Below are positions 1,497-60,788 of a stretch of DNA of 64,000 nt, in pieces. Each line of letters begins with the position of its first letter. Within the stretch, counting starts at the first letter, position 1. The stretch comes from an uncultured Clostridia bacterium. Its GTDB lineage: Bacteria > Bacillota > Clostridia > Christensenellales > CAG-1252. Made by a program: the position numbers and the translations under genes. The stretch is taken from NCBI GenBank assembly GCA_945482995.1, contig CALYRM010000001.1, positions 1,413 to 65,412 on the forward strand. The letters run 5' to 3'. A model generated the notes under the pieces. It searched no databases. It was not told where the DNA came from and worked only from the letters and a program-made list of their open reading frames with translations.

Positions 1497-1498
1497 AA

Positions 1499-14080: not shown

Positions 14081-14086
14081 AATGTC

Positions 14087-14776
14087 CTAACCGTCAAGAC
14101 TTCCGTAATACGCTAAACTCGGGTTACAATCGGGATAAAGAGTTCTGTCGTTGGAGACGTTCTTCAGAGATGAACATCCGCCGAAACAATACGGATATAA
14201 ATATATCGACTTGGAAGATTCGGGGAAAGAAACCGTCTCCAAATCCGCCATCCCGTAAAACGCGCCCGTACAAATTTCGACCACGTTTTTGCCGACTATG
14301 ATTTTTTGAATAGTCGTGTTTGTACCGCCAAAACCGTAATCGCCGTAGTCGGATTCGACTAGCACGCGAACGACGGGTTTGGTAACTTTTTGTCCGTTGA
14401 TCGTTACCGTAACTTCATCGGGAATCTGCATATATTCGAGAGTAACTCCGCCATACCAACCGGCAAGCGAAAAGCCTACTATATCGTCGGCGGATATCGT
14501 TTCGGCGGTAGTATACGAATATTCCATTTTTTTCACCGAGAACGTACCGCTTATACGCTTGTACGCGCTCGTTTCGGCGGTAGTTTCGTCGCCCGATAAA
14601 ACAACAGGAACGTACATCTGATACCTAAGCGACGGATTTTCGTCCAACACGTCGGTATCGACATATAACGACGAGTGTTCGTTTTTTCTCCATATTGCCA
14701 AAGAAACCGAAGTGATTGCAACGGCTAAAACGACCACGCTAACAATTATTATCAAAATTAACGAACTTTTTTTCAT
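14087..14776 (-). CDS. small N-terminally anchored protein with a single BspA-type LRR-like segment
   Basis: 229 aa. MKKSSLILIIIVSVVVLAVAITSVSLAIW anchor. C-terminal IVGKNVVEICTGAFYGMADLETVSFPESSKSIYLYPYCFGGCSSLKNV. Start 5 nt after the upstream stop. Confidence 0.65.
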   Translation of the reverse strand: MKKSSLILIIIVSVVVLAVAITSVSLAIWRKNEHSSLYVDTDVLDENPSLRYQMYVPVVLSGDETTAETSAYKRISGTFSVKKMEYSYTTAETISADDIVGFSLAGWYGGVTLEYMQIPDEVTVTINGQKVTKPVVRVLVESDYGDYGFGGTNTTIQKIIVGKNVVEICTGAFYGMADLETVSFPESSKSIYLYPYCFGGCSSLKNVSNDRTLYPDCNPSLAYYGSLDG

Positions 14777-14781
14777 AGCGA

Positions 14782-15822: not shown

Positions 15823-15874
15823 TATATCACATCTAGTCTATGCTTACCAATAATTTTTATTAATAGAACGTTCG

Positions 15875-18014: not shown

Positions 18015-21000
18015 CTACTCGTCGATTGTCAAAACGTAGACGAATATTGTTTTTATCTCTCCGGACGTGTTTTTGTTAGAGTTAAACTTAATCCGATACG
18101 CGCCGTTGTCGGTCGAATAGGTCATCGACGTTTTTATCGAATTGACCACAAAGTCGACGTTTTTCGCGCAACTATACGGAATGTAAGTAAACTCTGTCAT
18201 CTCGTAATTCAACCACGGCATTAATTCGAACAAACTGATTTGTCGGTAATTATTGACAGATATTCTATTATCCTTTGTTCCGAGTCCGTCCGAACTCCTT
18301 TCGGTTAAACTATAGTCGTTCGTCGACAAATACCAATCTCTGTGCATATAGTTACGAACTGTCGTGTACAAGGCTTGTTTGAACGAATCGTCGCGCGATA
18401 CAAACGTTTCGTAATCGGTACCGCCGTCGTCGGTGTCGTCGTTGCCTATCGCCAGACTTCCGAATGTACGAGTCGTTCCGCTTTCGGTAGTTCTAATCAA
18501 CGAAGTGGCGTTTGCCAGATAATCGAAACTTCCCGAGATCGAAGCGAAAGCGTAAGGACTATCCAGTTTACCGATCAACGAACCTACCGTACCCGTACCC
18601 GCTTCGCCTAGCGCCAAACGAACGGTCGCGAACGAATACGCGTTTTTGATTAAAACATTTTCGGCGGTTACCGTCATAGTTCCAGCCAACGCGCCGACTG
18701 CGGTTTGTCTGTCTTCGGCTTCGTTCGCTTTTGCCGTAACTCTACCTACAAAGCCTACGCCGATTATTTCGGTATCGGTCGCGTCTCCGACTATTCCGCC
18801 GACGCTTGTCGCGTTGTGCGAGCCGTAAACGTATCCGCTGACCGTGACGTTGCTTATCGTACCGCCGTCGGAAACGGATGCGACAACGCCCATCGCGGTT
18901 TGATTTCTGCTGACCGCTACCGCGTTCTTAACGGTAAGATTTCTTACTATACCACCGCCCGAGCTACCGTCCAAAACCGCAAACAATCCGCCTTCGGTCA
19001 AAATAATATCCGAAACGGTGTAGTTTTGACCGTCGTACGTTCCTTCGAGCAATCCGCCTTCTCCCAATACGACGTAACCGACCGACGATATACCGCTGAT
19101 GTCGTTTTGTTGCAAAATCGTCGGCAGTTTTCCGATAGGAGCAAAATCGTCGTGTCTTGCTTCGTACAATCCGCGCAAGTCGTCGCCCATTTTTTGCAAG
19201 TCTTTTGCGTTAAACGTCATCAATACGTAGTTAATCGAATCGCGAACTCTCAAGTAAACTATCTGCAATACGGGCAAGTTGATTTGATAGTTATAACGAT
19301 TTCGATCGTTGACGATGTTGACGTATAGTTTTGCGTTCGGTTCGTCTTGAGATCCGACTATCTTGTTATATTCGTCGCGTATACCCATATCGTTAGCCCA
19401 GTTGTTGACTATACGAATTACGGTATTGGGTATTACTCCGTCGACCAACATACCGTTCGAAATCAACAAATCGTTAAACTCTTTTGCGGTTAAGTCTTGA
19501 GCTTCGGTACCGAAGAGCGGATCGTAAACCTTGTTGATTTCTATTTCTTTGGGTTCTTCTTGCCAACTTTGGAGCAAGTTATCGTATTCCAACTCTAGTT
19601 GACGCTCGAGAATGGTGTATTCCACTCTTGAGTTTTCGGTCAAAGCGGGTACGTACGTCGAACCGTCGTCGGTTTCCGAAAGGATTTGATTGGATTCCTC
19701 CAATATTAGCCTTACTTCGTAGTTACTGTAACCGTACTCGTCTACCGTCTTGATATAGTAGTTCTCGCCGTTTTCGTCCTTGCTTACCCTTATTACGAAG
19801 AAGTGGGGATTGTTCTTGGACGCGTCTTTTACGTGAGCGACGGTTTCGCCTTTGTAATTGTAACCTGCAATGGTTATGTAGCCGAGCAAGTAATTGCCTT
19901 CGACGAGCGTGGTCAACGCAGAGTTATAATTTTCGCCCGCGCTGTTGAACATTTGGATGATATTTGCGATACCCCTGCTCCAAGCGTCGCTTTCGGCAGT
20001 ACCTGCGGACGTATAAACCTTGTTGTCGTCGTTCATATCGAAGATAACGGTGGTATCGTCGTAGTATTGACTTCTTTCGGGCGTGCCTACGTATATTTCG
20101 ATAGGCATAGGTCTGATATTCGCCTTGATGTTCGACGAACCTGTCGTACCCGTCGTTTCGTCGGTTTCGAGCGTGTAGTTATCGTTGATTATGTTCGACC
20201 AAACGATATCCGCGTTGGAAACCGATACGTTTCCTGTTTGATTGCCGTCGTCGTCTCTGAACGTGATACTCTTAGGTTTCAAGTCGATGTTTTCTCCGTC
20301 GGCAATGAAACGATTTTTCTTGGTGATCGCGTCGTCGCGGATAAACTCGCATAACTCGTCGTATTTGTCGGTGATAAACGTTATCTGTTCGTCGGTAAAC
20401 ATTTTTGACAGATAACCCAAACCGTCGGTATACGACAATCCGAAACCTGCGAACGACAACACCGCTCTCGCATTACTGATCGCGGTTGCCGAAACATATC
20501 CGACTACGGCGTTTTGTTCCAAAATGCTGTAATACGAATCGGAACAATATTTTGCATTTTCAACCAACTTGTCGAGATAAGTTATCAATTCGGCGTCGGT
20601 TTCCGCGTCGAACGTTATGCCGTTAGTGTCGAGATAAGCCAACAACGCGACGACCTGTTCGAACAATCTCAAAGGAGATTGCGTCGACAACGTTTCGATA
20701 TTTGCGTATAGAGTACGAATCGTTTGTTCGTAATTCGATATTACCGACGATTGCAATTCGTTATAAGCCGTTATAAACGAATCGTAAACGTTGGAGTCGA
20801 CTCTCGATCTTACGTTTTCGCTCAAACCGTCAAGCATCGTCTTTACGTACTCGAATTGCAAGTATGCGGTTACGTCGTTCGTACCGATGACCGATTGCAT
20901 ACGCATAGTTACTACGTCGGCTTGGACTTGATATAACAGATTTGCGATAAAGCCGACTTCGGCTTGCGTGCTGTTGCTCAACGAATAGAATCTCGTCATT

Positions 21001-24000
21001 GCCGAACGTAATTGCATTTCGGTATCGGCAATAGTCATTTGTATGTTAGTACCGAACACGCTGTAGTATTGAGAGTATTTTCTGTTGACTTGGCTTGCCA
21101 ATTCTTGCTTTTGCTTATCGGCGAGCATATCGTACCAATACTTGAGTTTCGCTATGTTATGAACGTCGTTGCGATCGAATACGGGTTTATTCAATTCGTC
21201 GGTATCGATGTATGCCAACGGGAAGTTGACGATAAGTTGTTGTTCGATATTCGCGAAGTTGCTGTATATCGGTATGTTGGGATCGCCCATCTTGGAAACA
21301 TACAAGTCATAAAGTATTCTGGTACCCGCGATTCCTATCAAACTGTCCGCAACCGTCGTATTGTAAACGGTGTTTTGAAGAATGATAGTCAAACGATGCT
21401 CGGTCAACAGCGAACTGTCCGCATTGTCGGGAACGACAACCGAATCTATAATTCCGTTGATATATTCCACGTTGTCGGCAATCGTGTTGAGCGTTTCTTC
21501 GTAGACCGTATTGCTTACGTACTTACCCAGAGCCTTGCATTGATTTAGTAATTCCGCGAGATAGCGTGTTTCCACCACCACTTCCATCAATTTCGGTTGA
21601 TTGGAAACGGGAACGTCGTAGGCGTCGGCGAATAATTGCGCCAAAGTATCTCCGTACAATTCGATTACTCCGATTCCCATTTTTTCCAACAGGTTATCGA
21701 GTCTGTTTTCGATTATCATGGTTTGCGCCTTGAACAAGTACAAAGCCATATCCGAAATAGTATCCAAACCGTACTCTTTCAACGCTTCGAAGTTGACGTT
21801 TGCGGCTCTTACGTTATCTTCGGAGAATTTCATTTCGGGATCCGAATCGACGTTGAACAAATCGACGAACAGTTGAGCGTCCGAATTATATTTATTTTCC
21901 GATGCGCTACTCAAGTAATTCATCATATATTGCTTGGCGTCCGCTCCGTACAATTCGCGCATCAAGTAGTACATCTTGTTGTAATAATGCTTGATTTGAG
22001 AACGAGTATATATGTCGTTGATCATTGAGTAACTCATCAGATCCGACGAGAACTCCAATTCGTTAATCATAGCCGAAAGGGTGTTACCCAAAACGTTGAC
22101 GTTCGCTTCGACGTAAGGTACGATCGCCTTTATACCGACGTTGTTCTTTTGAGTCGCAGACATTCTTTGATAGAGATAGTACAACGATAGCACGTGGTCT
22201 ATGTCTACGATAGAAGCGGCTTTAAGACTGTTGTCGATAAATCTGGTAACGTACATTTCGTCGGTATCGTCGAGTTTCATCAAGTCGTAAATGTCGTCTA
22301 ACAACGCGCCTAGATTGAAACGATAAATCAATTCGTCGATTTCGTTATACTCTACCGAACCTTCGGCGTATTGATTTCTCAAAGTCGTTACTTCGTCCTC
22401 GTACGAATCGCAAACACTCTTTAATTCGATATATTTTGCAACGTAACGATAGAGCGGATAACTTCCCGATTTCGAATCGGCATTCATAGTTTCGATTTCG
22501 GTTTGCAATTCGTTAATCAACGCGTCTAACGTGTCGGCAAGTTTGGTTATTAATTCGACACCGCTTACTTTGGCAATCTTACGAGTGTTGATTTCTAATT
22601 GCATATAGACGTCGAACGCCGCGCTCAAGAAGTTGAATTGAGTATCCAATGCGGACGATTTAGCCACTTCGTCGTATAACGCGTCGACCATTTGAGCCGA
22701 TCTGATAAAGCCGATGTTGGACAACATATCGGTCGCCTTGAATTGCAATTCTTCCAAACTGCGAATAATTTGCGCAACTCTGTCCGCAGCGATTTCTTTA
22801 CAAGAAGGACATTCGAAGTTATTTTCGATTTCCGACCATTTTGTTTCGTTCGGGATAATAACGTTTATAACTTCGCCCGAGTCTCCGTCGTATGAATAAC
22901 TGTTGGACATCGTGGTGTAATAGATGTATCCGCATTTGTCGCACCTAAATCTTCCGCCGATATCGTTTTCCAATACGCCTCTGATGATGTAACTTATCTT
23001 GTTGCTTCCGTCGATGAAACCGCTGACGATAGCCGTACCGATTTGGTCGTAAACGTGAACGATTTGACCGCCACGACTGATAACCACGGGGTTATCGTCG
23101 GCGTCGAGTTGTTGACGGAATACCGATTCTATACTGCCGTCGGTCGAACTGAATTCGAAATACGATTCGCCGTCGTAATACTTTTCGAGAGCGTTTGCGT
23201 CGCTGTCGATGTCGACGGACAATATACGCTTCAAGATAGACCAGTTCAACGTATCGTCGTATTCTGCCAATTCGTAGTTATAACCGTAAGAACAGTAATC
23301 GTAGGTTACTTTGGTACCGTCGGCTTTGTAGTACGAAATTCTTTCGCGAGAAGTTTGCGAAATACCGAGTATCTTACAAGTAAAGCCCGTACCTGCTTCG
23401 GTATGAGACCAAACGCCACCCTTACCTTCGTCGGTTTCTACCGAAATATAACTATAGGTATATTGTTGTTGACCGTTTGCGAAACCGCCGGGATACAAAA
23501 CGCCTCTGCCCAATGCCGAAATGACGTGTTCCATACTGTCGTAAACGGGGGGATTAAGCGGATCGTATACGTGCGCCGACGTATTTCCGTTCAAGTACCA
23601 AACGATAGAAATGTTAAACTTATTCATGGTCGCCGAACCTACTACGTTAGCGATGTTGTAGTTACGAACGATTCTTACCGAACTCGATATGGATTGATCG
23701 TCGAAAGATACGTTGAGTTCGTAATCGCCTGCCAAACGGAATTCGTTCGCCCTACCGTTGTTAGCCTTGTAACCGTTTACGAAGTCTGCGGTCGGGTTGG
23801 TCGAAACGAGCAAGGATATCGCGCCTTGCGACGTAGCGTCGCGTATCAATAATTGGATACTTGCGCGGATCTTGTCTATTTGATCTATTCCGTTGTAGGT
23901 ATAGCGAACTTGCGACAAACTCAACCAAGTTTCTTGATCGTCGTCGTAACCTTGCCATACTACCGACGTATCGTATTTGACGATACGCAAAATCGCGGTT

Positions 24001-27000
24001 CTTTGCCAATCCTCGTAGTTACGTTCGTCCGAAACGGTAGCGATTATCATATAGATACCCACTTCGTCGTAACCTGCCTCGTCGATAGCGAACGCTTCGG
24101 AACCCGTCATCGGAACGGGATTGCCGTTTTGATCTACAACCCAAGTAACTCTGTTGTTTTTGGCGTTGTCGTAAGTCAAATCTCCCGTCACTTGAAGTTG
24201 TATCAAACGATAGGTGATGTTAGCGACGGACGAGTCGGGATAACGCGGGAAATTATTAACCACGTCGTAACCTTGAGATCCTTCTTTGACGTAGATGTAA
24301 TAATCTTGACCGCTGTACACCAACGGATTGCCGTCGTCGTCGACCAAACGATCGCCATAGGTCAAGTTGTCTATAACGCCCTTGTCGATGATAATGTCGA
24401 TACTTCCGTGCCAACCGAGATAGTTTTCTTGTTCCATAACGTCGGCGACTATACTGTAAACGCCTGCGTCGCGTACGCCGTTCGGTCCCGACGCGAACGT
24501 CGTCGAAGCGTTATGCGCGCTGTGTTGCGCTCCGCCGTAGATGATATGTATGGGCATATCTTGATCGTACGGATAATAGAGTTCCAATTCCGATCCCGCG
24601 GAGTCGTCGCTATACGAGAAGTTATTGCCCGAATCCGTTACGTAGAAGTAACGAGTAAATCCGCGATAATAAGTGTAATGTTGAACTTTGCTCAAAACAT
24701 AGTATTGCACGCCCGAAACGAAGGACGAGATATTCGCTATTTCGTAAGTTTCGGTTGCGCTGTCGTAAACGAAGTATAATTCTTTCGGGTTGAAAGTTCC
24801 GTTCGCTTCGACCATAATGTTTTTGAAACTGAAGTATTTGTCGATAGGCGCTTTTTCGACGGTTGCGTTCTTGGTAGCGTCGTTGAGATCGTAGTTATTT
24901 CCCAAAACGACTTCGTTATCGTCGTCGTAAGCGTTCAATACGGCGTTAATCTCGTATACGCCTGCGTTACGGAATTCCGACGTCAATTCGCCGTTGCGTT
25001 TGAGAACCAATCCGTTCGAGTCGTAAATCCTAGCGACGTCGACGATACTCAAATACAGATAGTTACCCGACGAAGCGAACTTATCGGCGTCGTCGCCGAC
25101 TAACGATACTCTCGCCGTCAAAGTGAACGAGTTTCCGTTGTATTGCAATACGCCGTCGGTGAGTTCAAAATCGGCGCCTATGGTTATCCATTCGATTTCT
25201 ACCGACAACTTGGAGATCTCGGCGCGAACGCTGAAAGCGTCGGACGATATGCGATAGTTACCTTCGAGATAGTAGTAAGAACCTACCTGTTCGAATTTTC
25301 CGCTGTCGACTCGAATTTCGTATTTGCCCGCGTTACGATACGCTCTTACTGGACCGACGGTTCCGTCGTCCAAAATAGCGTAGTAAATCAAATCGAGCAA
25401 CAATTCGCTTCCGCCGTACTTTTCGATATCGTCGCCAAGCAACGATATGGTTGCGAAAGTATTGTCGAAATTCGATCCGATGTTTTCACGCAACGTGCCG
25501 TTGTAAATCAATCTAGTGTTGTACCAGGCGACGTCGACGTCTTTGACGGTAATCAAATCGGTTTCGACGATATCGTCCATATAGTAGTTGATACTGTCGC
25601 TTACCACGAAAACGATACGAGTAACTTCTCTTACGTTTTTACTGTCGAAGCTTGCGCCGATAGTAACGTCGTCGCCGTCGCAAATTTCGTAACCCGCTTT
25701 GAGATAATCGGTCAAATCGGTAACGATTACTCCGTTTACTTTCGCTATAACGTTGGTCGTTCCGTCGTACTCTTTTTGCCAAGTCAACGAATCGGACAAC
25801 ATAAGTTGTTTTTTGAATATATACGCGTTGGTAACGTTGTCCCAAGTGTAGTTACGATATACGCTTTCGCTTTCCGATATTCCGTCGGCGTCGGACAAAA
25901 CGAAGTAAATAGTTTTGTTGTCGCCCGCGTTGATACTGTCGTAATCGGCGGAAATTCTGATCTTGCTTTGGTCGTCTCCCTGCCAACCGTCGACGATATA
26001 AGCGGGAGCGGAAGTCAAACGATCGTACACTTTGTTCCACGAAACGTCTTGACCGCACACGTCGCAAATACCGTCGTGATTGACGTCCGCGTGAACGTCG
26101 CAAGCGTTATCGGGGATTTTCTTTGCGCATACGTCGCAAACGCCGTCGCCGTTTACGTCCGAGTGGATTCTGCAATCGGTCGGATCGTTAAGTACGGGCG
26201 AGATAACCAACAATTTCTTGTCGATAACCAATTCGGCGGTTTCTTCCCAATCGTAGTAGTCGTTAATCGACTCGTCGGACGGCGTAATCTTGGCGGTAAT
26301 CGTATACGTTCCCGAATCTTTCGCGCCGTTCTTTACGCCCGAAACAAGTCTGCCGTCTGCGGTCGAAATGGTATAAACCAACGAAGCGTAGTCGTTACCG
26401 AGCAAGCTAATGATCGCGTCTTCGTCGAACTTATCGGAAGATTCGTCGACGAGAGAAACGGCGATATAGTGCATTGTCGAATCGTAAGTGAAATGCGCGC
26501 CTACGAAATAACGAGAGATAGTCGCTTTTTCGATAACGAATGACTGTATCAATTCGTTGCTGTTGACGACTTCGTAGTTGGTATCCGAGAACAAAGCGAC
26601 CAAGACGTAATTTTCGGCGTGGAACAATTCTTTTTCGATCAATCCGATCAATTCGTCGGTAACCGTTTCGTCGACCGTAATTCTGTCCGCGCTCGTCAAG
26701 AAAGTATTGCTCGACGTATATCCGGAATAATCTTTCAACGCGTCTTTTTGGAATACTTTGACGGTGAGCGAAACCAAACCTTCGAGTTCGGTAAGTTGTA
26801 TGGACGCTCTCGCGTAATTGACGGATCCGTTATAAACGATGCTTCCGTCGTCGTTCGGCAAACTCCATTCGACGCGAGTTTGGAACTTGTGGATATCGAC
26901 GTAACGGATCATTTCTTTGGTTTCGTAGTTACCGCTACCGTCACCTATGGTCGCTTTCAAAACGTACTTACCCGCGTTGAACATACCGTCGGCGTAGTCC

Positions 27001-30000
27001 ACGACGTTTCCGTTATATGTTAATTCGTAAACAACAGGAACTACCAACGTGTCGTTTTCTGACAACGAATAAGTCAACGAAGTAACGTATTCGTCTACCC
27101 AACCAGCGCGTTTGGTTACGGCGATATAGTGAGCCATACTGTCGAAAACTCTATCGATATATCCGTCCGCGTCGGTATCTTCGCCGTCGAAGTCGAAATA
27201 AATCGAACCTAATTTACCGTTTTCTATAGAACCGTCTTCGAACGTCAACATTTTGATGGTCAACGTACTCGTACCGCGCCAACCTTCACAATTTTGGCTT
27301 TCGGCGATGCTCGCTTCGATATAGTAAACGCCTACGTTCTCCGCGCCGTCGAACAAGTCCGAATATCCGAAGTCGTGTCCGGAAGTATTGTATCTGTATA
27401 CGACGTCGAAAGTAAGCGTACCGCCGTTCAATACGGCGTTTATCGTAAGTACGATTTCGTCCGCCCATTCGTTTTGACGGCTTACGCCGACGTAGTGACG
27501 ATGCATATCGTAATAACGTTCGCAATCTTCGGCGATAAACAGTTCGCCCAAGTTACCGTCCGAATCGTTCCATTGCAAACGGTCGATTTCGACGATAGTG
27601 TAACCCTCGTAAGATTCGATGTTGTCGTTACCGCCGATCGTGATCTTGATATAATATTTGCCCGCATTGACCGCGTAACCGAACGTTTCGGTATAAACCG
27701 AACCGCCGTTGACGTTGTATTGCCAAGTGATAGGCAACGCAAACGCGTTTTCGGATTCCGAACAGAAATAATCGGTACCCGACGGGCTTACTTTGAACAA
27801 AGCGGACGTCGATCTGCTGTCGAACGTTCCCAATACTCCGCCGTCCGCGTTTGCATATTCGAACGAAGCGTATTGCGCAGTCATATCGTAAACTCTCTTG
27901 ACGTTTACGGGGTCTATGACGGGGAAGTTATGATCTTCGCCGTTCCATTTGATCTTGTTGATCGTCAAATCGCAGAACGATTCGAAACCTTCGTAATTAT
28001 CGCCTTCTTCGATATAAGCGCGAATATGATATACTCCGCTGTCGACTGCGCCGTCGAATACGTTGGAATAATCTCCGCTGAACCCTACGTAATAGGTATA
28101 AATAACTTCGATGTCGAACGTTTCGTTTCCGATCGTATAAATCAACGACGAGATCTTGTTGGGATTGTAAGAATCTACGTTGGTCAAACCGACGTTGTGA
28201 GTCGCCGTATCGTAGGTCAAGGTAGTGCCGACCAATTGATAACGATCGAAGTTACCTTGTTCGCCGTTCCAACGTATCTTTTCGATTTCGATAACGGTTT
28301 CGTCGCTCCAACCGTTCCAGTTGATGCCTTCGGCAATAGTCGCTTTGACGTGATATTCGCCCGCGTTGTACGCATACTCGAAAGTATCTGCGTATGCGCC
28401 CGAACCTTGCGCGCCTACGTAGTAACGATATTCTACGGGAACGCTTATGTTACCGCCCGTCAAAGACAAAATCAACGAAGCGTTGAGTTCGTCCGCCGAA
28501 CCGCTTTCGTAAGCAACCGAAACGAAGTGTTTGTAACCGTCGAATACAAGAGACGTTCCGCCGTTAAGGAACAGCGATCTCGCTCCGCTCCAGTCGACTT
28601 TGTTTATAACGATAGTCGTTTCGTCGTTCCAATCGTCCCAGTTATCGCTACCTTCGATATGCGCTTTGATCTGATAGATACCCGCGTTCAACGCATATAC
28701 GAACGAACCGTTGTCGCCGTAGTTTCCGCTACCCGCTTCGCCCAAGTAATAAGTATAAACAACGGGCAAATTCAAACTAATTCCCGAAGACAAAGAGATA
28801 ACCCATTCTTCGAGCATCGTTTCGGGCATAACGTCTTTTTCCGCTCCGACCGACACTATGTGACGGTTGTTATCGAATACGAGCGTCGTTCCGCCGTTGA
28901 GATAGATAGGATCCATAGGATCGTCGTCTTTATCCCAAGTAAGTTTCTTGATAGTCAACGTAACCGTTTCTTCCCAAGCGTCCCAGTTATCGCTACCTTC
29001 GATATACGCTTTAACTTGGTATTTACCCGAATTGATAGCGCGTTCGAAGGGAGATAATTCGTAGTTACCGTCGGCGATTTCGCCCAAGTGATACGAATAA
29101 ACGACGTTTAGATAAATAATGTTATCGGGAGCCAATTCTATTTCGAGAACCGTGATCTGCGAAGTAGGAATTGCGCCGTCCGTCGAACCGATCGAAACGT
29201 AGTGATGTTCGCCGTCGTACGACAATGTACGTCCGCCGTTGAGATAGATAGGATCCAAAGGATCGTCGTCTTGTTCCCAAGTAAGTTTTTTGATAGTCAA
29301 CGTAGCGGTCATTTCCCAAGCGTCCCAGTTCACGCTACCTTCGATAAAGGTTCTGATCTGATAAACGCCCGCGTTGATCGCGCTGACAAAGAAACCGCTG
29401 TCGCCGTAGTTACCGCTACCCAAGTCGCCCATGTAGTAGGTATAACTTACGGGCAAGTTCAATTCGACGCCCGAAGCCAACGTGATCTTCAAGTTGGTGA
29501 TTTGACCGTCGGGATCTTCTTCGGCGGTATAACCGACCGTAACGTAGTGAATTTTGCCGTCGTAACAAATGGTCTTTGCGCCGTTTAAGTACAACGGGTT
29601 CAACGCGTCGTCGTCTTGTTCCCAAGTGAGCTTTTTGATAGTCAAAGTAACCGTGTCTTCCCAAGTGTCCCAGTTATCGCTGCCTTCGATATACGCTTTG
29701 ATTTGGTAAACGCCCGAATCTATCGCGTTTACGAAAGTCGCGTCGTAATCTCCGCTACCCAAGTCGCCCAAGTAGTAGACGTATTTGACGGTAAAGTCGA
29801 TTTGTCTGCCCGACGACAATTCGACCGACCACGAAGTAATCTGCGAAGTAGGAATTACGCCGACCTTCGAGCCTATCGAAACGTAGTGATATTCGCCGTC
29901 GTACGACAAAGTACGTCCGCCGTTGAGATAGATGGGATCCAAAGGATCGTCGTCTTGTTCCCAAGTAAGTTTATTGATTCTTATCCAAGTATCCGTTTGC

Positions 30001-33000
30001 CAAGCGTCCCAGTTATAACCTTCGCCGCCTGCGATAGAAACTCTGATACTGTACAAGCCCGAGTTGAGAGCGTACGCAAAATCGTATTCGTAGTTACCGC
30101 TACCCGATTCGCCCATATGATATTTGTAACTTACGTCGAAATAAAGGGTTACGCCGTTCGACAACGTTTTGCTAATTCTGTTAAGAGCCGAGTCGGGCGT
30201 TCCTTGTTGGCTACGACTGATAGAAACGTAGTGTTGCAAGTCGTCGAAAGAAATATCGAGTTCTCCTCCGATAAGGTAGAGCGAACCCAAGTTGCCTTCG
30301 TCGTCGTTCCATTTCAGACGAGTGATGCTCAATATCGCTTCGGCAACGAACGCGTCGTAATTGGTCGTAGCGTCGATATGAGCGGTTACGTAATAAACGT
30401 TTGCGTTTTGCGCGCCGTTAAACTCGAATTCTTCTCCGTTCGACAAGTGATATGTATAACGAATGGGAACTCTCAACGTTCCGCCCGCCAATACTACTGT
30501 GAATTCGCTCATAATCGAAGCGTCGTCCACATACGAACCGCCCAACGTGATGTTCATATAGTGGGTATTGGTATCGTAAGGCAAGGATGCCGAGTGGAGT
30601 TGCCATTCGCCCATTTCGCCCGAAACGTAAGCGAGTTTTTGAATTGTCAAAGTAGCGTCTGCGCTCCATTGCTCGTAATTGACTGCGTTATCGCCGTCCA
30701 AAACCACGCTTGCGCGGAAGAAGTAGATACCCGCGTCTATCATTGAAGGCGTTTCTACAGTGGTATAAACCGAAGCGTATTCGGTTCTGTAAGAATATTC
30801 GATTTCGGCAAATCCGTCGCCGTCGAGTAACGCCACGCGAGTCAAAGGAGACGTACCGTTATAGGTATCTGCGGTATTTGCGTAAATGGCGTGAGCCAAC
30901 ATATCGAACTTGACGGTAGTTCCGTGGAAGAACAACGCCGATAATTGACCTTCGCCGAAGCGCGCTTTGTCGATTTGTAACAATACGGTCTCGTTAAATT
31001 CGGCGTAATTGCCGTATTCGTCGCCGTCAATCTTTGCTGTTACGTAATAATAACCCGTGTTCTTTGCTCCCGTAAACGTCGCGCTGTCGCTCTCTACTCC
31101 GTCTGCCGATTGCTTGTAAACGAAGGTATAAACGACGTTCAAACTCAACGTACCGCCCGCCAATTCGATAATTACCGAACTTAATTCCGAGCCGTTCCAT
31201 TCGTTTGCGCGGTTGACGAAACATCCGTGTAACGTCGTGTCGTAAGTAAACGAGTTACCCACAAAGAATAGGTTGCCTAGATGTCCTTCGTCGTCGATCC
31301 ACTTCAGTTGCATGATTTCCAACGTTGCGGTCGCGCTCCAGCCGTCGTAATTTTCGGTTTCTTCGATAGTCGCCATTACGTAGTAGACGCCGACGTTCGT
31401 CGCGCCGTTAAACGTTTGATCGTAGAGAAATTTGTCGCCGTGTCCGTAAATATTGAACGAATAGTATACTGGAATTTCCAAACTGTCGCCGAAGAACAAC
31501 AACTTGTCTACTTGAGCGTCGTTGGGTTCGGTTCCGTTCTTTACGCCCAAGAAGTGAGCGTTCATATCGTAATTGACCGCGTTATCGGAAAGATACAGGT
31601 TGCCCAAATGTCCGGGGGTGGACGTCCACGTCAATTTTTGTATCTTCAGTACGGCAACCGCTTCCCAACCTACGTAGTTCGTCGATTCGCTGATAGTCGC
31701 TTTGACGTAATACGTACCCGCCGCGCTCGCTCCGTCGAACAGATCCGTAAATTCCGCGTTTTCTCCTATCTTGTTAAAGGTGTAAACGACGGGAATGGTC
31801 AAGCCCAAATCGCTGTAATAAAGGGTGTTGATCAACGTATCGTTGGCTTCTTGCGTTTTGCTTACGCTGAGATAGTGGATACGAGTATCGTAAGGAAGAG
31901 TGTTGTTTTCCAGATAGATTTCGCCCAAGTGTCCGACCTGATTGACGAATTGCAAAGGCAAAATCGTCAATTTGACCGTTTGAGACCAAGGCATATAGTT
32001 ATCTACTGCGTCTACGCTCAAACTGGTGCTTACTTTTACGTAATAAGTACCTGCGTTTACCACGCCGTTGAACGTATTGAATACGCCGTCGATACTAGCG
32101 CTGTATTCGTATACCAAGTTGACGTAACCGTCCGCGCTCAACAAAGGAGCGGTAAGTATCATGGTATCCAAGTAACGCGCGCTACCGTTTACGACTGCGC
32201 CGACGTAATGGGGCAAGCCGTTATACAAGATAGAATCGTTACCCGTCAACGACAACGTGGTAAATCCGTTCGGATGATTTTCGTGATCTGCATCGAACGA
32301 CAACGGAACGATTATCAACTCGCCGTCTAACGAAAGCGAATTGTAGTTATTGTCGGGATCGGACAATACCGCGCGAATGACGTAAGTACCCGCGTTGCGC
32401 GCGCCGTCGAAATCGTGTCCCGCAACCGAATACGTAATGATCGCGGTATCGGTCAGACCGTATTGTTCGGCAATAGCCAAAGTCAAACCGTTAGGACGAA
32501 TAGGCATCGAAACCGCTTTTTCCTTGCTACCGACAACGAATATATCGGCAGGAAGAACAACGCCGTTTGCCGACACTATTACGTTTACGAAATAGGTATT
32601 TGCGTCGTAGAACTGCGTCAAAGTTTCGGACAAGAAACTAAACGCCGTCAGACTTTCGTCGTCTACTCTCGCCCACATATCAGCGGGATTGATAGTCAAA
32701 GTCGCTTGATTGGTGAACGTGGTATAGTTTTTGTGTTCGACCAGTACGGTGATCGTATACGTTCCCGCGTTGCGCGCGCCGTCGAAACTATCCGAACCCA
32801 CAAAGTAAGATACCTTAGCGAGATCGTCCAAACTCAAACCGATAGGACTTACCGATACGGTCGAAGCGGGAGCGACGCGAACTACGGCGTCGTCTGCGTT
32901 CTCGTACAAAGTCAAGTAGTATTTTGCTCCGTCGTAGGTAACGGTGCGATCCGAGAAATTCAAGTTACCGATAGTCGCTTTTCCGATATTCAAAGTCGCT

Positions 33001-36000
33001 CTCATCTCTTCCGATACGAGATAGTTTGGATTATAAGCGATTTCGTTATCTACGCTGTTTTCGTTGATATATGCAACGACTTTATATTCGCCCGCGTTGG
33101 TTGCCGAAACGCCGTTCAGCGAGTCGCACGTATAGTCGGACGCGCTGTTTGTGGTGGTAACCTGATAACGAACGTTTACTACGTCGCCGTATTGAGTGGT
33201 ATTACCCGAAACCGCAATCGTCTTTTGTTGACCGTCGTAAACTACGTCCAGTCCGTCGAAGTCGATACCCGTTATCGATACTCTCGCGACAATAACGTCT
33301 ACGGTGAGATCGGTTGAGAGATAATCGTACGTCGACGCGCCGTCGGCGACGATCGTTGCCGTTATGCGATAAGTACCCGCGTTATAAATCGTGTTGTTGC
33401 TAAACGCCTTGCCGATAAGCGACGCGTCGAGAGCGTCGGGAGCGAAATAGTCGTAGGTATAAGTAATGGTCGCAATATCCGAAGTGCTTGCTCCGTTAAC
33501 CGTAAGCGCGATACTGTTGACCATAGCGGTTACCGCGACGTTCGCTTCACGACTTACGCCGATACTGTAGTAACTTGCCGTATAACTGTAATGATATTGA
33601 TTAGGCGTTTCGCCTTTTAGTTCGGGAGCGTTGAGATAAACGTTTTCGATTGCTATGGCGTTGACAACCACCGTTTGCGCCGAGATAACTACGTCTTCGT
33701 AGTTGTTGTGGCTGATGGTAGCCGAAACGGTATAAGTACCGCCGTGTAAGATACTGCCGACCTTACCGTGATTATAGGTATAGGTGTAAGTAACGGTAGC
33801 GATGTCGAAACCGTTTGCGTCGCTATCGATAGGCGAAACCGAAACGGCGTTGAGTTGAGCCGTTTGCAACAAGGTTTCGTTAATCGTATTTACGTTGAGA
33901 TAGTATTCGCGAGCGTCGTAATCGCGTTCCGTTCCCTTGAGATAGAACGTACCGTAATTATCTGCGTTACGCATCGTCGCTTTGGTGATTACCAAAACAC
34001 CGCTCAATTCGGTATCGACGTAGTTTTCGTTGACCACGCCGTTACTCTTTGCGGTAACGATTGCCACGATAACGTATTCGCCTACGTCGGTCGCTCCGTT
34101 GCCCGCATTACCGTTGATGGTATACGTTACCGACATTACGGCGTTATCTTTGTCGTAGTATTGCATATGCGCGCCGTCTACCGCGTTGACCGAAATCGTA
34201 TGCGTCAGACGATCGTAAACCACGGTTACTCTGTCGCTCATTGAGAGTTCTTTGCCGTCGCTACCCAACAACTTCGCCTTTTCGATAGTCAACTCTACCG
34301 TGTCCGTCCAAGTATTATAGTTAGCGTTATCCGCGCCGACCGTAACCGTTATCGAATATCTGCCGACGATCTTTGCTCCGTTATAAACGCCGTCGATAAG
34401 TTTTCCGCCGTCGATTACCGTTATGCCGTAAACCACGCTTACTTCGTCGCCGTATTGGGTTTTTGCAACCGAACCCAAAACAAGATCGCTACCTTGTTTG
34501 AGATAGATATATTGAATATCGGCATTATAAGTCACCGTCGCTTTGTCGATCGAAATATTGGATATGTCGATTGACTTGATGTTCATAACGGCGTTCTTTT
34601 TGGTAGGATCGTCGCTGTTCGCCACTACGAGCGTGTTGTAGTTTGCGTGAGTCGCCGTTGCGGTAATCACGTATCTGCCGACGTTGGTCGCGCTGTGACT
34701 GTCGTCTCCGCTCGGCGAAATAGTATATTGAATATTGAGCAAAATACCGTGTTGGCTATACGCTTGGTTGACCGACAAAGTGTGAGTATAACCGTTGTAG
34801 AGATATTCCGCGTCGGTCAAAGTCACGCCCGTTATGTCGGCTTTGGTAATGCTCCAATTCATAGTCGCGCCCGAAACGATGGTATAGTTGGTGTTGGTAA
34901 TCGAATAGGTAGCGACGTACTCGTCGACGTTTACGCCTTTGGTTCCCGATACCGAGAAACCGAGATCGGATTCGCCTTGACCTATCGCAATATTGTTTAT
35001 TTCGTAAGTAACGTTGACCATAACGTTATCGAACACTTTGGTGTATTCGGTAACCTTGGTTGCTCCGACGTACCAGTCTATCGTCAAAGGTCTTTGAGCG
35101 ATGCTCCAGTTATACGTTGCGTTCGACAATATCGAATAGTTGGGGTTGCTTACAGTTATGGTTTGCGAATAGTTACCCGCGTCGCTGTTTTCGAAAGAAT
35201 AAGCGTAGCGTTGTAACTTCAATCCCGACGACTCGTAGGACGACGCGGTGTAACCCGTCAATCCCAAATCGTCGCCGTCGATAATGTTGTCGATAACCAA
35301 AGTACAAGCGTGTACGTTGCCGTCGTAGACGTTGTTACTCGAATTAAACGACCAGTTCAAATCCAAAATTCTGCTGTTGATAATACCGTTTCCGAACGAC
35401 ATCGTAGATTGACTGAAGTCGTCGGCTGTACCGTCCGCGCCGAACTTGTAGTTATCGGTATCGCCCGACGAACTTACCATCGTATACGTAATGGTTTTGC
35501 CTACGCCCACGTTTTTGTCGTCGTACGTTGCCGAAACTTCGATCGTATCGCCTTCGAGAATGGACGAACTGCGGAACACTACGTTTGCGTTCACCGTACC
35601 GTCGTAGATCTTGGTATGATCGAAACTGACGATTTCGATACCTTTCTTGTATATTGTACAAGCGACGGTCGAAGTCTTGACGTCGTTGACGTACAGCACG
35701 TAGTTTGCCACGTGAACGGAATCTCCGCTCAGCGAGAATATAACGCTTCTGTCGCCGATCGAAGCCGAAGCCGAAATCGACGAATAGACCGCGCTGATAG
35801 ATACGGGAGCGACTCCCAGTATACTGTCGTCCGAAACCGTAAAGTCGGTAAACGCGAGTTTTTTGTTATATACCTTATCGGCAGAATTTTCTCCGATGGT
35901 TATGGATATGCGTTTAGGCAAAACGTAACCTTGAACGGTATCTTTTTCTTCGCTTTCTATATTCAATATATAATTGGACTTATCCGAACCGTTGATGACG

Positions 36001-39000
36001 AAGGTGATCGTCTTGCTTGTTTCACTGCTGTTCGCGTCGTCGAAACTTGCGGTAATGGTAGCGTCCGTTCCGTCTACGATACCCGAATGAACGTCGTCGT
36101 TATCTACCGATTGCAAAATTTCGAAGTACGTATATTTAGCGTCGGTATCGTAGATTTTGCTCCAAGAACCGACCGTCGAACTATCTTTGACATAAACGGT
36201 GCGAACGCCGATTTCGACGTGCCACAAAACAGTGTCGTACGCGCCTTCGACCAAGTTACAAGGAATTTCGCCTCCCGTTGCCCCCGGCGTTGCGAATACG
36301 ATGTCGTACTTGCCTACGTTACGGATAATCTTGTTGTTTTGATATTGAGCGTAGCTGTATTGAACTTCGTTAATCAAAACGATGATTTCGTTGACGTTTA
36401 CTCCTTCGACGACGGGTATAGCGTTACGGAAGTAAGATCCGTCGAAAACTTGTTGGAAAGTTTGGTCGGGATCGTCTACGTCGAACGCGCTCGCCGCTTG
36501 GTTGACGGTATAGGTCAAAACGTACAAATCTTCGTCCGACGATACTCTACCGCCCCAAGAGCAAAGCGAATTGTTGTCGACGGGGCTGATCAAAGTCGCT
36601 CCGCCCGTCTTGGTGCTTCCCGACTTGAAGTAACTGTTGTCCGAATAACCGTCGTCGTTGTTGTCGAATACGAAATTCGCTCTATCGTCGCCAACCAATG
36701 TCAATTCGGTCCAATAACGACCTGCGTTTGCAGAACCGTACGCGCTGTCGTACAACGGATTATAAATTCTGTCGGCAGACGCGTCGCTAGGCAACCATTG
36801 ATGTTCCTTGTGGAACGCTCCGCTCGTCGCTTGGTTAACTCCGCAGAAGCAAAGTCCGTAGTAGATTTGCGAGAAGGATATAGCCGAAGCCGTCAAAACG
36901 TCGCTACCCGACGTAGCGATTAAACTGTGATGTTGATAGTCGCCCGTATACGAAATCGTATCGCCCCAAACGTAATCTACGCTAGAACGCAAGGTATACG
37001 ACGAATTTTGATAATTATAAATGTTGTGCAACCAACGAATATCGGCAAGACCGATCGCGTAAGGCGTGATACCGAATTCTGCGGTTGCGTTTTCCAATAC
37101 GTAGTTCGGCATATCCGTCAAAGTAGCGGTTACGGTATATCTACCCACGTTACGCGCGCCGAGTTCGGCCATATCGGTAGTATAAGATATGGTTTCGCCG
37201 GCGACTTGATTGTCGAAATAAATACCGAGTTCGCTTTGCAATCTCGCGGTTGCGTTGTAAACCAACGAATCGTAGGTGATACGGATCGAGATGTTTCTCG
37301 GGCTGATCTTCCAAGACTCCAGAGCGGTTTGCTCGGGTAACGTATAGTCGTTGTTGCTCAAACCGATCGCTACGGCGTCGGTATAAACGCCCGCGTTGAT
37401 TTGCGTAGCGTTTTCGACTATTATCGTACAAACGTCGTTCGACGCCAAATTATTGGCGCGAGCCGAAACGGTATGACGCAATCCGTCGTAAACGGTATCG
37501 AGCGTCGTACTGCCGTCCAACAACCATTCGAACGAAATAGTTTTGCGTGTGATCGCATAACTGCCTTCCGCCTGAGTTTCGGGCAATTGATAGTTATCGT
37601 TGTTGAGTTTGACGATACTTGCGGTGTAGAACAGATTGTCGCCGTTGACGTGTACCGAAGTAAAGTTACACGATTTAACGTCGCCCAAACCAGTAGACGT
37701 CATAGTCCAAGAACTCGAAGTAGGCATTTCGCCCGTAGTCGAGATAGTGAACGTAACGCTGTCGCCCGCAACCACGTTGGAAACGTCGAACGAAATACCG
37801 TGCGCCGTTCCGTCGTATACGTAGGTCGAGCCGTTGGCGGTGATGCCTATGGTAACGGTACGCTTCGAAATGCTCCACGAAGCAAATCTGTTATCCGACG
37901 GCAATTTGTAGTTATTGTCTGGATTGGTCGCGATCGACGAAACGGTTGCGTCGTAACCCGACGAGATGTAATTGACGGCGGTAAAGTCGTAAGTGATTTT
38001 GTATAACTTGACGTAATACGTAACTCCGCTTTCAAATCCGTCCGCGCTGACTTCTACGTAACTTCCGCCGTTTAGAACATAATAGGTATACGCCGAATTA
38101 TAAACGGTAGCGACTTCGTAGTATTCGACTGCCGACGATCTTACGGGAACGTTGCTTCCGTTGTGAGTATAACCCACTGCAAGAGCGTCTTTGTTTGCTT
38201 CCAAGATGTTGCCCACGGTCAAAGTAACGCCGTGCGCCGTTCCGTCGTAAGTCCAAGTCGAACCGTCGTTTGCCCATTCGAGAGTCAACGAGCGTTGTCC
38301 TATCGAATAAGACGTTACGCCCGACGTCGAGAGAACGTAGTTGTCGGCAGACGCGTATCTGCTATAAGCGTGCGTCGCGCTGACCGTTTCGATACCGCTT
38401 ACGGTAACGTCGTAGATACCGCAATTAATCGAAGTAAAGTCGTAAGTACCGTTAATTACGGCGGTAGTTCCGCCTACGATACCTTGATACTCGTAGTTAT
38501 TGGCGGTGGTAGTCAATACGATGGCTTCGTCGTCGACGATATTCGAAACCGTCAATCTTACGCCTTGAGCGATTCCGTCGTAAATACCCGAGTTTGTGGA
38601 TATGTAACTAAACGCCAAGTCTACCGTGCGCTCGATAATATCCCACGAGCCTTTCGTTTTGGTAGGCAACGAGTAGTTCTTGCCGTCGTATTCGTCGGAA
38701 ATCGACAAAACGTTGGCGGTATATTTGCCTTTTGCAACGCCCGTAAACGTAAGCGACAATGAACCGTTGCCGTTGCTGTTGTACGTACCCGAAACGTTGC
38801 CCTCGATACCGTCGGATTCGAAGTTGAATACGACTTTATCGGTTGCGACCATTCCGCTGACGGTAACGCTTATACCTTGGGCGTCGCCGTTATAGACAAA
38901 CGAAGCCGAAGTCCAAGCGACGTTCAAAATTCTCGGAACGATCTCCCAATCGGTTTGAAGTTCGCCTTCCGACGAATCCAATTGATAGTTGTCGTTATCT

Positions 39001-42000
39001 ATACCTACGATCAAAGCGACGTATTCGCCAACCTTGTCTGCGGTATTGACCACGTTCGCGCCGTCGTTTGCATACGTAATATTGATAACGTCACCGCTAC
39101 AACGATTGAGAATTGTAGCGTATACGCTTAGATAATTACCGTTTCCTACGTATTGCAACGTTGTAGCCGACCAACTTATATCGTTTTTGGTAATGGCGCG
39201 TTTATAGATCGTCCATTCGGTCGAACAGATTTGGCTGTCGGACTCGAAAGTATAATTCTTAAACGCTTCGGCGTCTAATTGAACTCTCGCGATATACGTA
39301 CCCGCGTTGACCGCGCTGTTACAAACTTTGGCGGACGTATCCGCTATATATTCGAAGCCCAATCGACAAGTAACGTTTGCTCCGTTATTGCCGTTGACCG
39401 TATAACCCGTTACCGTAGCCGTTACGGTTTGAGTAGACGCGTTATACACGATCCTAGCGTTCGCCAACTCGGTATCGCCGTATTTCCACTCGGGTTCGGC
39501 GATTATTTGCTTGGTGATTTGCCACGTGTTAGAAATAACGTCGGGCAAGATATAATCGTTATAACCGCGACTGTCTATAACTTTGCTGATAGTCGAAACG
39601 TAAATGCCCGCATCCGTACCTACGTCGCCTGTTCCCGACAATACGAACGAAATGTACGCGCTGTCGCTTGCCAAAACGCCCGAATCTCCGTCGACCGTAC
39701 CGACCGTCGCGCTGACCGATCTTTGCAAACCGCTGTAGACGGTAGAAGAACCGTTCCATGCAAGCAAAGAATTATTAAGCGTTTGAGCCAAATTGTCGTA
39801 TACCCACAAGATAGACGCGACGCGTTGCGAAACGGTATAAGCCTTTTCGCCCGCTATTTGATAGTTTGCGCTGTCTACCGCGTCGCCCATACCGACGAGT
39901 TTAACCGCATAGTTACCCGCGTGGATCGAAGCCGTAAAGGTATAGACGTAGGTGTCGAAGCCCGAAGCGGACGTCAGAGAATCTCTGGTAAAGTTGTTGA
40001 CTCCCGTGACCGAGCCAGAACTCAATTCGGTTACGTTCGCGTTGAAGTTTACCGAATCTCCCGCGATGATATTCGATATAGTAACCGTTACGCCCTGACC
40101 TTGACCGTTATAAATCAAAGAAGGATCGTTCCAATCAACTACCAAGATACGTTTGTTGATATACCAAACTAACGAACGGGTACTTTCCGCGCCCAAAATG
40201 TAGTTGAGATATCTATCGTCGTCTCCGCCGATTTCGATAACCGTCGTGGTATATTTCCCCGCTTTGATAGCCGAGTTACCGCTATTCGAATCGGTTTGAT
40301 ACGACAAAATCAACGTTGCGCCGTCAACTATACCCGTAGGCGTTGCCGAAACGGTCTTTGCCGTTTTGTCGTAGGTATAAGCCGTCGAGTAATCCCAACT
40401 GAAACCGATTTGTTTTTGCTTAATCGCAAACGAACCTTGATTTTCGGGTAACGAATAGTTCTTGTTACCGTTGTTCGACGCGTCTATCGAAACGATTTTC
40501 GCGGTATAACTACCCGCCGAAATGCGATTGACGGCAAATACTATCGAAGTCGCCGAAGTAACGGTGTTAAGCGTGGAACTAAACGTATCGAAAGCATTTG
40601 AATAATCTACCGCGCCGTCGGTGGTATAACGGAAACCGTCGATGATATAACCGAAAGTAACGTTGTCCGAAGCGATCAGATTTCCTATAGTTACCGAAAT
40701 ACCTTGAGCGTTGTTGTTGAAAATCAAGTTGGTCGAAGTACCCCAAGAGATCGTCAAAACGCGTTTTTGGATCGTCCAAGAAATACTTAACTTTTGATAT
40801 TCTTCGTTTTCGCTCGAATTGTTGACGGGCAGACGATAATTGTTCGACGGCGAACAACCGTTGATGGTCGCCGTATAATCGCCCGCGTCGGTAGCCGAAG
40901 TCGTACCGCTATAAGTAAACGTAACCAAATAACCGTCGACGACGTTTCCTGCGGTTGCTTTTATGCTCTTTTCGGTACCGTCGTAAGCAAACGGCGAAGA
41001 ATAATTCCAAGTTATCGTCAACATACGTTTTTCGATAACGAACGTTACGCCGTCTACCGACATCTTGTAGTTAGATGCCGAAACGCAAGCCGAGTTTTCA
41101 CTATCCGCGCTGGGCAACGCGCTTGCCACGCTTATGCCGTCTACCGAGAACGAGCCTGCCGAAATCGAATAGAAAACGTAATCTCCGTTGACGACTTCGG
41201 TCGTACCGCTGATAATTCCCTTGACGGCGAAGTTATTGGTAACGACGTTGAGTTTAAGTTTTTCGTTGTTTTGAATACCGCCCAGAGTAGCGGTAACGCC
41301 GTGTTGTGCGCCGTCGAATACGGCAACGTTTCCTTGATCGGTAGCCGACCAAGTTACTTTGACTTCGCGCGGACTTAGGGTAAATTCCGAAGAACTGCCT
41401 TGCATCGTATAGTTATCGTTGACGGGATAACCGACCAAATCGTCGGACATAACCGCGCTTACGGTATAATTACCCGCCTTGACCACGCTGAGCGAAACGG
41501 TGAATACGCCTACGCCCGCTTTGTTTTCGACGTTTGCGGTGGTATAGGCGGTATCGGTTATCAAGGCGTCGCCCGTCGACGTAAATCTTGCGCCGAGATT
41601 AGCGATAGTCGTGTTGGTGCTTACGTCTTTTGCCGACAAACCGATTACGTACGCGATACTGTCGTACGCTCCGCTTTGATCGGCGCAAATACCCGTAATC
41701 GTTATGGTAACCGTTTGTTGAGCAAGACCGTTATAGATGCGAGTGTTGTTGACGTTGATAGCCAACGTCAAAGGACGCGCGCTTATTTGCCAATCTTTTG
41801 TCAAAGTAGCGTTATTGGGGAGTTTATAATCGTCGTTGGGATTAGAAATAAATCCGACGACTTTCGCTCTGTAATTGCCTTTTTTGACGCCCGTATTACC
41901 CGTAACGTCCAAGATAACTTCGTCGTTGCCGACCGCATTGGATACCGTCGCGAATATCGAACGGGTTGTTCCCGTATAGGGCGAATAAGGAGTGGAAAAA

Positions 42001-53951: not shown

Positions 53952-54165
53952 CTCTATTCTCCTTACGTCTTTGCCTGCGATCGACAAAGAACACTTATAT
54001 ATAATATAATCTAACGCGCGAACGCACGATAATATGCGGGCGGTCAGTTTCTCACAATATATTATCGCATATCCGCCGTGTTTTGTCAATAATATGCGCG
54101 CTTAATTTTTAATTAAAATAGTGAAAAGTGTGTGAAACTATGTGAAAGTGTGTTACAATATCGTT
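53952..54165. promoter_or_regulatory. divergent control region between the giant gene and the signal peptidase gene, with repeated motifs
   Basis: SD AAGGAGA (53958-53964, minus). ATAATATGCG direct repeat at 54029-54038 and 54089-54098, with an inverted CGCATAT at 54066-54072. (T)GTGAAA x3 in 10-nt phase at 54121, 54131 and 54141. TGtTACAAT extended -10 (54151-54159) lies 6 nt before the ATG at 54166. AT-rich TATATATAATATAAT block at 53996-54010. Confidence 0.45.
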
Positions 54166-57862: not shown

Positions 57863-57930
57863 AGTTAAGCCTCCCGTGATTTGTTTATGTTCCGATAATT
57901 TTTTATTATCGGAAGTTGTAGGGTAAAAAA

Positions 57931-59931: not shown

Positions 59932-59945
59932 TTTATAACTCCTTT

Positions 59946-60776: not shown

Positions 60777-60788
60777 ATCTTTTCCCCC

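Follow-up and report, generated by a model that had tools for sequence, protein, structure and literature searches.

What is a knuckle of the rubredoxin type, whose Fe/Zn(Cys)4 sites the textbooks treat as cytoplasmic modules, doing at the joint between the stalk and the head of a giant, apparently exported protein? The question is raised by a stretch of 64,000 nucleotides (hereafter the window) from an uncultured Clostridia bacterium (contig CALYRM010000001.1, positions 1,413 to 65,412), which carries a giant gene on its minus strand. A preliminary description of the window had placed a four-cysteine motif at 22797-22949, and the motif is indeed there, on the minus strand and inside the giant open reading frame (ORF). 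The minus-strand translation of window 22500-23300 contains ...GGRFRCDKCGYIYYTTMSNSYSYDGDSGEVINVIIPNETKWSEIENNFECPSCKEIAADRV..., and it reads ...ENDIGGRFRCDKCGYIYYTTMSNSYSYDGDSGEVINVIIPNETKWSEIENNFECPSCKEIAADRVAQ... at the site. The stretch from RFRC to CKE occupies 22794-22952, and the earlier range was off by within one codon. The spacer of 33 amino acids given before was a miscount: 26 residues lie between the 'YY' and the 'W'. The four cysteines of the double knuckle are C10383, C10386, C10427 and C10430, and in the window copy 40 residues separate the two CxxC knuckles. Residues are numbered along the mechanical ORF 18015..54089 on the minus strand, an uninterrupted frame of 12,024 codons listed from TTG 54089. 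The features at the site are as follows, with conservation counted over the seven family sequences described below.

22785..22955, minus strand: rubredoxin-like domain, residues 10379-10435, from PF00301, PDB and hhalign matches

22932..22943, minus strand: knuckle 1, C10383-D-K-C10386 followed by GYIY, both cysteines invariant (7/7)

22800..22811, minus strand: knuckle 2, C10427-P-S-C10430 followed by an invariant Lys, with C, P, C and K invariant (7/7)

The double knuckle was recognised by a Pfam profile, by a search of PDB sequences and by profile-profile comparison, which bears out the rubredoxin type assigned to it in the preliminary description. A hidden Markov model search, suggested by that description and made with the excised domain, gave a match to the Pfam Rubredoxin model PF00301 above its gathering cut-off of 23 bits: a 127-residue piece scored 28.9 bits (E 1.2e-6, profile positions 2-41 of 47) and a 139-residue piece scored 28.6 bits. 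The relative L001 scored 28.0 bits, all five family members tested singly matched at E <= 0.01 (best E 1.7e-10), and the record of one relative, P0004, was already annotated with an automatic PF00301 match. When PDB sequences were searched with phmmer, nearly all matches were rubredoxins or flavorubredoxin, with both knuckles aligned across a gap of ~10 residues. By hhalign, a family profile of five knuckles matched eight genuine rubredoxin domains (five from loci L002-L006 and three classical sequences) with a probability of 98.7% and an E value of 1.6e-16; the alignment contained two 5-residue insertions in the inter-knuckle loop. When metagenomes were scanned with the family alignment, ordinary proteins with an N-terminal rubredoxin, 28-40% identical, also came out. 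At the level of sequence, homology to the rubredoxin fold thus has good support. Generic zinc-ribbon families were rejected as sub-threshold: Zn_ribbon_RPB9 scored 19.1 bits against a threshold of 25.2, the NCBIfam model TFS_arch scored 23.5 against 64.75, and the remaining zinc-ribbon models scored lower. On the knuckle, NCBIfam gave only sub-threshold zinc-ribbon and rubredoxin matches.

The individual residues follow rubredoxin in part. The two CxxC motifs of rubredoxins, the second of them CPxC, are present, and C10383, C10386, C10427, P10428 and C10430 are invariant (7/7). Aligned with Tyr11, Tyr13, Phe30 and Trp37 of Clostridium pasteurianum rubredoxin are Y/F10388, Y10390, W10418 and F/Y10425; at the last two positions the aromatic character is kept and the residue is changed. 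The invariant T10416 aligns with rubredoxin Thr28, and P10428 with Pro40. Other positions depart from the model. The first knuckle Gly is present in five of the seven sequences and is Asp in two, and the second is replaced by an invariant Lys. The knuckles, which are ~29 residues apart in rubredoxins, are separated by 39-41 residues in six members and by 146 in P0003/L013. The Phe49 region and C-terminal strand (profile positions 42-47) were unmatched, with a predicted helix instead. We would name the element a divergent rubredoxin-like domain, because its profile score and four cysteines are those of a rubredoxin while its knuckle glycines and spacing are not and the C-terminal strand is absent.

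How far is the site conserved? With residues 10290-11290 as the query, HMMER was run exhaustively over 1.84 billion representative proteins and found four; three of them (P0001, P0003 and P0004) cover the knuckle, and P0002 is head only. Three more came from metagenome and genome contigs scanned with the family alignment: L001 (56% identical to the window copy, in a frame of at least 5,124 amino acids), L010 and L011, the last from a roe-deer caecum metagenome-assembled genome (MAG). The family thus has 7 sequences overall. L012 duplicates P0004, and L013, labelled uncultured Christensenellaceae, duplicates P0003; every named family record is a Clostridia MAG. A word-indexed homology search with 434 residues around the knuckle gave no matches, and one with a 5-sequence knuckle profile at E <= 10 gave 44 candidates, none scoring. 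No related loci were found by the first genome scan, which used single-protein patterns, in viral contigs or by plasmid megablast. This giant-protein family is extremely rare.

The preliminary description had put forward conservation of the four cysteines in homologues as a check, and all four are present in every homologue found: C10383, C10386, C10427 and C10430 are invariant across seven sequences that are 30-58% identical. Further invariant positions in this alignment are Y10390, S10397, Y10398, T10416, W10418, P10428 and K10431. The remaining three cysteines of the same 530-residue alignment are conserved in just 14-71% of the sequences. In P0003/L013, a ~105-residue insertion at a loop insertion point between the knuckles leaves all four cysteines in place. 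The invariance of the cysteines together with the tolerated insertion is strong evidence for purifying selection on the Cys4 and for a surface-exposed inter-knuckle loop. With this conservation of four cysteines and seven other positions in divergent sequences, and with the hhalign E value of 1.6e-16, a chance motif or a functionless, decaying relic is effectively excluded, even though the Pfam score is near the threshold in full-length context.

P0003/L013 also carries a module of ~35 residues, 'G-DTIPAGTVL-x-QY-x-L-x-D-(K/R)-x-F', inserted at several sites (for example, P0003 residues 1740-1845). Two copies lie inside its rubredoxin loop. Its distribution is like that of an insertion module that proliferates and either tolerates surface loops or targets them.

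Is the protein exported? The following features bear on its start and N-terminus.

18015..53951, minus strand: giant surface-protein gene, from ATG 53951 to the stop codon at 18015-18017, 11,978 amino acids

53850..53951, minus strand: putative N-terminal Sec-type signal peptide or signal anchor, MKRTASIKKIALALAVVFVFLASSLSLLTIFTLR, judged by eye

54061..54089, minus strand: promoter-like site TTGACA-17-(TG)GATAAT upstream of the giant gene, with 11/12 consensus matches and an extended -10 TG

An AAGGAG Shine-Dalgarno sequence lies 8 nucleotides upstream of ATG 53951. TTG 54089 was rejected as a start codon, since this TTG is part of the promoter -35 hexamer and ATG 53951 has the Shine-Dalgarno sequence. 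The N-terminus reads MKRTASIKK-IALALAVVFVFLASSLSLLTIFTL-RADK, a Lys/Arg-rich start followed by a 24-residue hydrophobic stretch. There is only one strong hydrophobic segment in the 12,024 residues (residues 56-74, mean hydropathy 2.65); a second hydropathy window, at residues 7168-7186, was barely over the 1.8 threshold (1.86). The C-terminal part, which ends in ...IFVYVLTIDE, has no hydrophobic segment and so no sortase-type hydrophobic tail; no scan for the LPXTG motif itself was made. Among Pfam families, YDG (38.4 bits) and CBM_5_12 (31.8 bits) matched the stalk above their cut-offs, and MBG_3 matched it weakly (18.7 bits, below cut-off). With a Shine-Dalgarno sequence and ATG, an N-terminal hydrophobic segment, YDG, CBM_5_12 and a weak MBG_3, the exported repeat protein of the preliminary description is plausible, and we infer export through a Sec-type N-terminus. 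The combination of an export signal, repeats and binding modules that marks a Firmicute giant YDG/MBG-type surface protein is found here.

The knuckle lies between three parts of this protein as follows.

22956..23243, minus strand: last stalk beta domain (YDG-like, 'KYYDG'), residues 10283-10378, adjoining the knuckle and conserved in all seven sequences (7/7)

20250..22799, minus strand: predicted helical region of the conserved head, residues 10431 to ~11280, beginning right at the second knuckle

18018..20249, minus strand: C-terminal part of the head, residues 11281-12024, beta-rich with a Gly/Val-rich GLUG-like stretch, conserved in P0001, P0002 and P0003

W10283, K10303, Y10305, G10307, E10374 and D10376 are invariant in the last stalk domain, for which AlphaFold2 predicted strands with low confidence. 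Helices were predicted, also with low confidence, from the first residue past C10430, and helix-former composition peaks in the helical region, which is conserved in P0001, P0002 and P0003. The position at a junction of beta stalk and helical region, as first described, fits both the composition and this predicted secondary structure. The same order recurs in every member: a ...KYYDG...ISY-I-G-LE-D... beta domain, the knuckle and then, with no linker, a predicted helical CPxCK-xxAAxxAxxIxxL... segment. The distance from the knuckle to the C-terminus is about 1,600-1,900 residues in all complete members, and P0002 aligns over the shared head at 36% identity. Neither the helical nor the C-terminal region of the head in the window copy gave Pfam, NCBIfam or PDB sequence matches. 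The rubredoxin-like knuckle is single-copy within the giant protein, and we rejected it as a stalk repeat element for this reason.

Internal BLAST and phmmer searches for stalk-type repeats C-terminal to the knuckle were negative, the only match being an artefact of query/target overlap, so that the argument on compartment rests on modules of the homologues. By Pfam, L010 has CBM26 (59.4 bits) and Big_3 C-terminal to the knuckle, and L011 has a GLUG motif there, all at or above threshold. Because extracellular-type modules lie downstream and there is one strong hydrophobic segment, both flanks of the knuckle should lie outside the membrane, and the knuckle is most likely extracellular.

The stalk contains other cysteine-rich elements. 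At residues 9306-9345 (window 26055-26174, minus strand), two tandem C-x2-H-x8-C-x2-C units, CRIHSDVNGDGVCDVC and CDVHADVNHDGICDVC, each carry a calcium-loop-like D-x-N-x-D-G. The closest relative, L001, keeps every one of their Cys and His (frame residues 2354-2393), and the units match no Pfam family; they are a putative second kind of metal knuckle in the extracellular stalk. L010 has a zinc-ribbon-like C-x2-C-x17-C-x2-C motif near its C-terminus, by CBM26/Big_3 (frame residues 5359-5383), which the window copy lacks. Towards its N-terminus (residues ~500-1500 of the ORF, about 49590-52590, minus strand), the stalk of the window copy is relatively rich in Cys, with 22 per 1,000 residues against 0.72% overall.

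What could the knuckle do at this place? We favour, with moderate confidence, a role as a structural metal(Cys)4 clamp at the stalk-head junction, not as an electron carrier. The giant chain would be exported unfolded via Sec. Outside the cell, in anoxic and reducing surroundings, the four thiolates would capture one metal ion (Zn2+ or Fe2+/3+). The bound metal would cross-link the knuckles and tie the ~40-residue loop, the final domain of the stalk and the helix that opens the head to one another. The outcome would be a compact, rigid and mechanically resistant joint that couples the ~10,300-residue beta-repeat stalk to the ~1,600-residue head. We infer export, metal binding, the identity of the metal and the clamp role alike. 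A structural role is favoured over electron transfer because of the changes of the knuckle Gly, the lost C-terminal strand, the longer loop and the absence of a redox partner. The FeS4 centre of rubredoxin bears ~211 pN and hides ~13 nm of chain (PMC4491811), a resistance that would make a clamp or a mechanical fuse in a tensed fibre physically reasonable. A hinge role for the knuckle is possible.

Several observations weigh against a rubredoxin-like clamp. Cys4 sites outside the cell are prone to oxidation. The PF00301 score is sub-threshold when the domain is searched in a context of several thousand residues (19.3-21.7 bits; 19.3 bits, E 0.0012, in a 4,024-residue piece). The AlphaFold2 confidence (pLDDT) was 42.4 for the single sequence and 43.3 for a 4-sequence alignment, too low for the geometry of the cysteines to be read, and a Foldseek search of this low-confidence model against the PDB gave no match at E <= 0.001. 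The family has been seen only in MAGs and metagenome contigs, with the N-terminus present in the window copy alone. As for the cysteines themselves, proteins without Cys make up 33% of exported proteins in strict-anaerobe Firmicutes and 70% in aerobic Firmicutes (PMC2823432), which tempers the surprise at Cys in an exported protein of an anaerobe. The preliminary description had called the knuckle unexpected in an exported protein; the unusual context stands, and the oddity of the cysteines is softened for strict anaerobes (PMC2823432).

The alternative that survives best is a redox- or oxygen-sensitive latch, which we consider unlikely. Its metal-thiolate site would be intact only under the anoxic, reducing conditions of the gut; oxygen would lead to oxidation and metal loss, the junction would unfold or form disulfides, and the orientation or activity of the head would change. 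The strict conservation of the Cys4, the obligate-anaerobe type of the host (a YjjI glycyl-radical enzyme and its activase are encoded in the window) and the origin of family members from gut MAGs, including that of the roe-deer caecum, are all consistent with such a latch. Oxidative unfolding of a rubredoxin domain reportedly regulates mycobacterial PknG. A purely structural site, however, accounts for the same conservation, and no recognisable partner or output domain was found in Pfam and PDB sequence searches. Extended to force, the idea becomes an extracellular rubredoxin-fold metal(Cys)4 centre in strictly anaerobic gut Clostridia, a latch that responds to force and/or oxygen where the stalk of a giant surface fibre joins its head, and this too seems improbable to us. 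If it were true, the intact centre would clamp the joint and hide 40-150 residues of chain, and oxidation or high tension would rupture the centre, with the polysaccharide-binding head extended or re-oriented. Taken with the C-x2-H-x8-C-x2-C units of the stalk, it would make metal-thiolate knuckles an unrecognised extracellular structural class peculiar to anoxic habitats.

It is quite unlikely that the knuckle is metal-free and that its four cysteines form two extracellular disulfides stapling the loop. Disulfides are the usual fate of Cys pairs outside cells (PMC2823432), and the conserved cysteines are even in number in a predicted exported protein. Against this stand the anoxic habitat and the finding that anaerobic Gram-positives are the one group without an even-Cys bias in exported proteins (PMC2823432). 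The CxxCG[YF]xY ... CPxCK context, moreover, is a metal-knuckle signature homologous to rubredoxin. The cysteines of a rubredoxin-knuckle CxxC are placed for metal coordination.

A functional Fe-rubredoxin that passes electrons outside the cell or detoxifies oxygen or reactive oxygen species at the cell surface would account for the true rubredoxin homology and the retained aromatic core, and anoxic habitats offer Fe2+. We regard it as highly unlikely, given a single copy ~10,300 residues from the membrane anchor, no redox partner domain found in the giant protein or its neighbours, an invariant Lys at the second knuckle Gly and a lost C-terminal strand.

The preliminary description had also raised a cytoplasmic stopper or folding checkpoint, in which a fast-folding, metal-bound knuckle could not pass SecYEG and the head would be retained or delayed inside. 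Rubredoxin-type knuckles fold quickly around metal and are normally cytoplasmic, and the position exactly at the stalk/head boundary would suit a plug. The CBM26 (starch-binding), Big_3 and GLUG modules of extracellular type that homologues carry C-terminal to the knuckle disfavour this idea, as does the absence of a second strongly hydrophobic segment; a jammed Sec translocon would also be toxic. We hold a stopper to be very improbable.

The genes around the giant gene encode BspA-LRR/Flg_new surface proteins, the YjjI glycyl-radical enzyme with its activase, and defence functions; the window is from the genome of an anaerobic Firmicute. The genes downstream of the giant gene (window 11546-18004, minus strand) are syntenic with L001 15641-18274, L008 11400-13028 and L009 11669-13528. 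A 709-residue product from this region matches L009 (35% identity, E 1e-100) and L008, and an 844-residue LRR_5/Flg_new product matches L001 (36% identity, E 1e-170). Several downstream products begin with a hydrophobic helix ending in AWF, AWY or GGTFAWY, starts that we presume to resemble SipW/TasA-type signal peptides.

On the other side, window 54996-63914 is a defence or mobile island. It encodes a 302-residue protein with only AAA_2 and ClpB_D2-small, a ResIII/HSDR helicase, a TPR protein, a CAP12/Pycsar-type TIR protein, a GIY-YIG and DUF4357 protein, a serine recombinase and a WYL protein. Three genes on one strand at window 123-6107 (minus strand), for a SNF2-family helicase (1,167 amino acids), an AAA_3/MoxR-like ATPase and a DUF2201 putative metallopeptidase with a VWA-like domain, are possibly another defence-type module.

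What would the clamp mean for anaerobes? We see here a known fold in variant form, in a setting that is unusual and probably extracellular, within a very rare family and with metal binding and function putative. If the clamp is real, strict anaerobes can build extracellularly with metal-thiolate knuckles, which aerobes mostly cannot use there because oxygen destroys such sites. It raises the questions of how the site is metallated after Sec export, which metal is used, and whether the joint behaves as a mechanical or oxygen-sensitive fuse. The knuckle also marks the N-terminal boundary of an uncharacterised, conserved head of ~1,600 residues, in a family that is very rare and belongs to gut bacteria of Christensenellaceae-like type. 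Were the site to hold nothing but structural zinc, the finding would extend the known domain architectures only modestly.

How does the domain compare with known systems? It shares the CxxCG[YF]xY ... GTxW/F ... [FYW]xCPxC double knuckle with rubredoxins (PF00301) such as those of Clostridium pasteurianum and Pyrococcus furiosus. These are cytoplasmic electron carriers of ~54 residues, whereas the domain here is embedded at about residue 10,380 of a predicted exported protein of 11,978 residues. Through two 5-residue insertions it has 39-41 inter-knuckle residues in place of 29 (146 in one member). Its second knuckle Gly is an invariant Lys, its first is Asp in 2/7, and a predicted long helix stands in place of the C-terminal strand.

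The rubredoxin fold is likewise a module of larger proteins in flavorubredoxin NorV, PknG, LapB/YciM and the rubredoxin-helical fusions L002-L006. Four of these fusions (L002, L004, L005 and L006) likewise have T or K, not Gly, directly following the second knuckle. The rubredoxin domains of PknG and LapB are structural or regulatory and not electron carriers. All of these proteins are cytoplasmic, however, and in none does the domain lie between Ig-like repeats and the helical head of a giant surface protein; our literature searches found no report of a rubredoxin domain in extracellular, surface or giant proteins.

With the giant MBG/YDG-repeat adhesins of Firmicutes, the protein shares a putative Sec signal, thousands of residues of 'YDG' beta-sandwich repeats, carbohydrate-binding modules and a GLUG-type C-terminus. 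It differs from them in lacking a C-terminal hydrophobic sorting signal, in having a conserved head of ~1,600 residues with a helical region of ~850 residues without Pfam or PDB relatives, and in carrying the conserved Cys4 and the C-x2-H-x8-C-x2-C knuckles.

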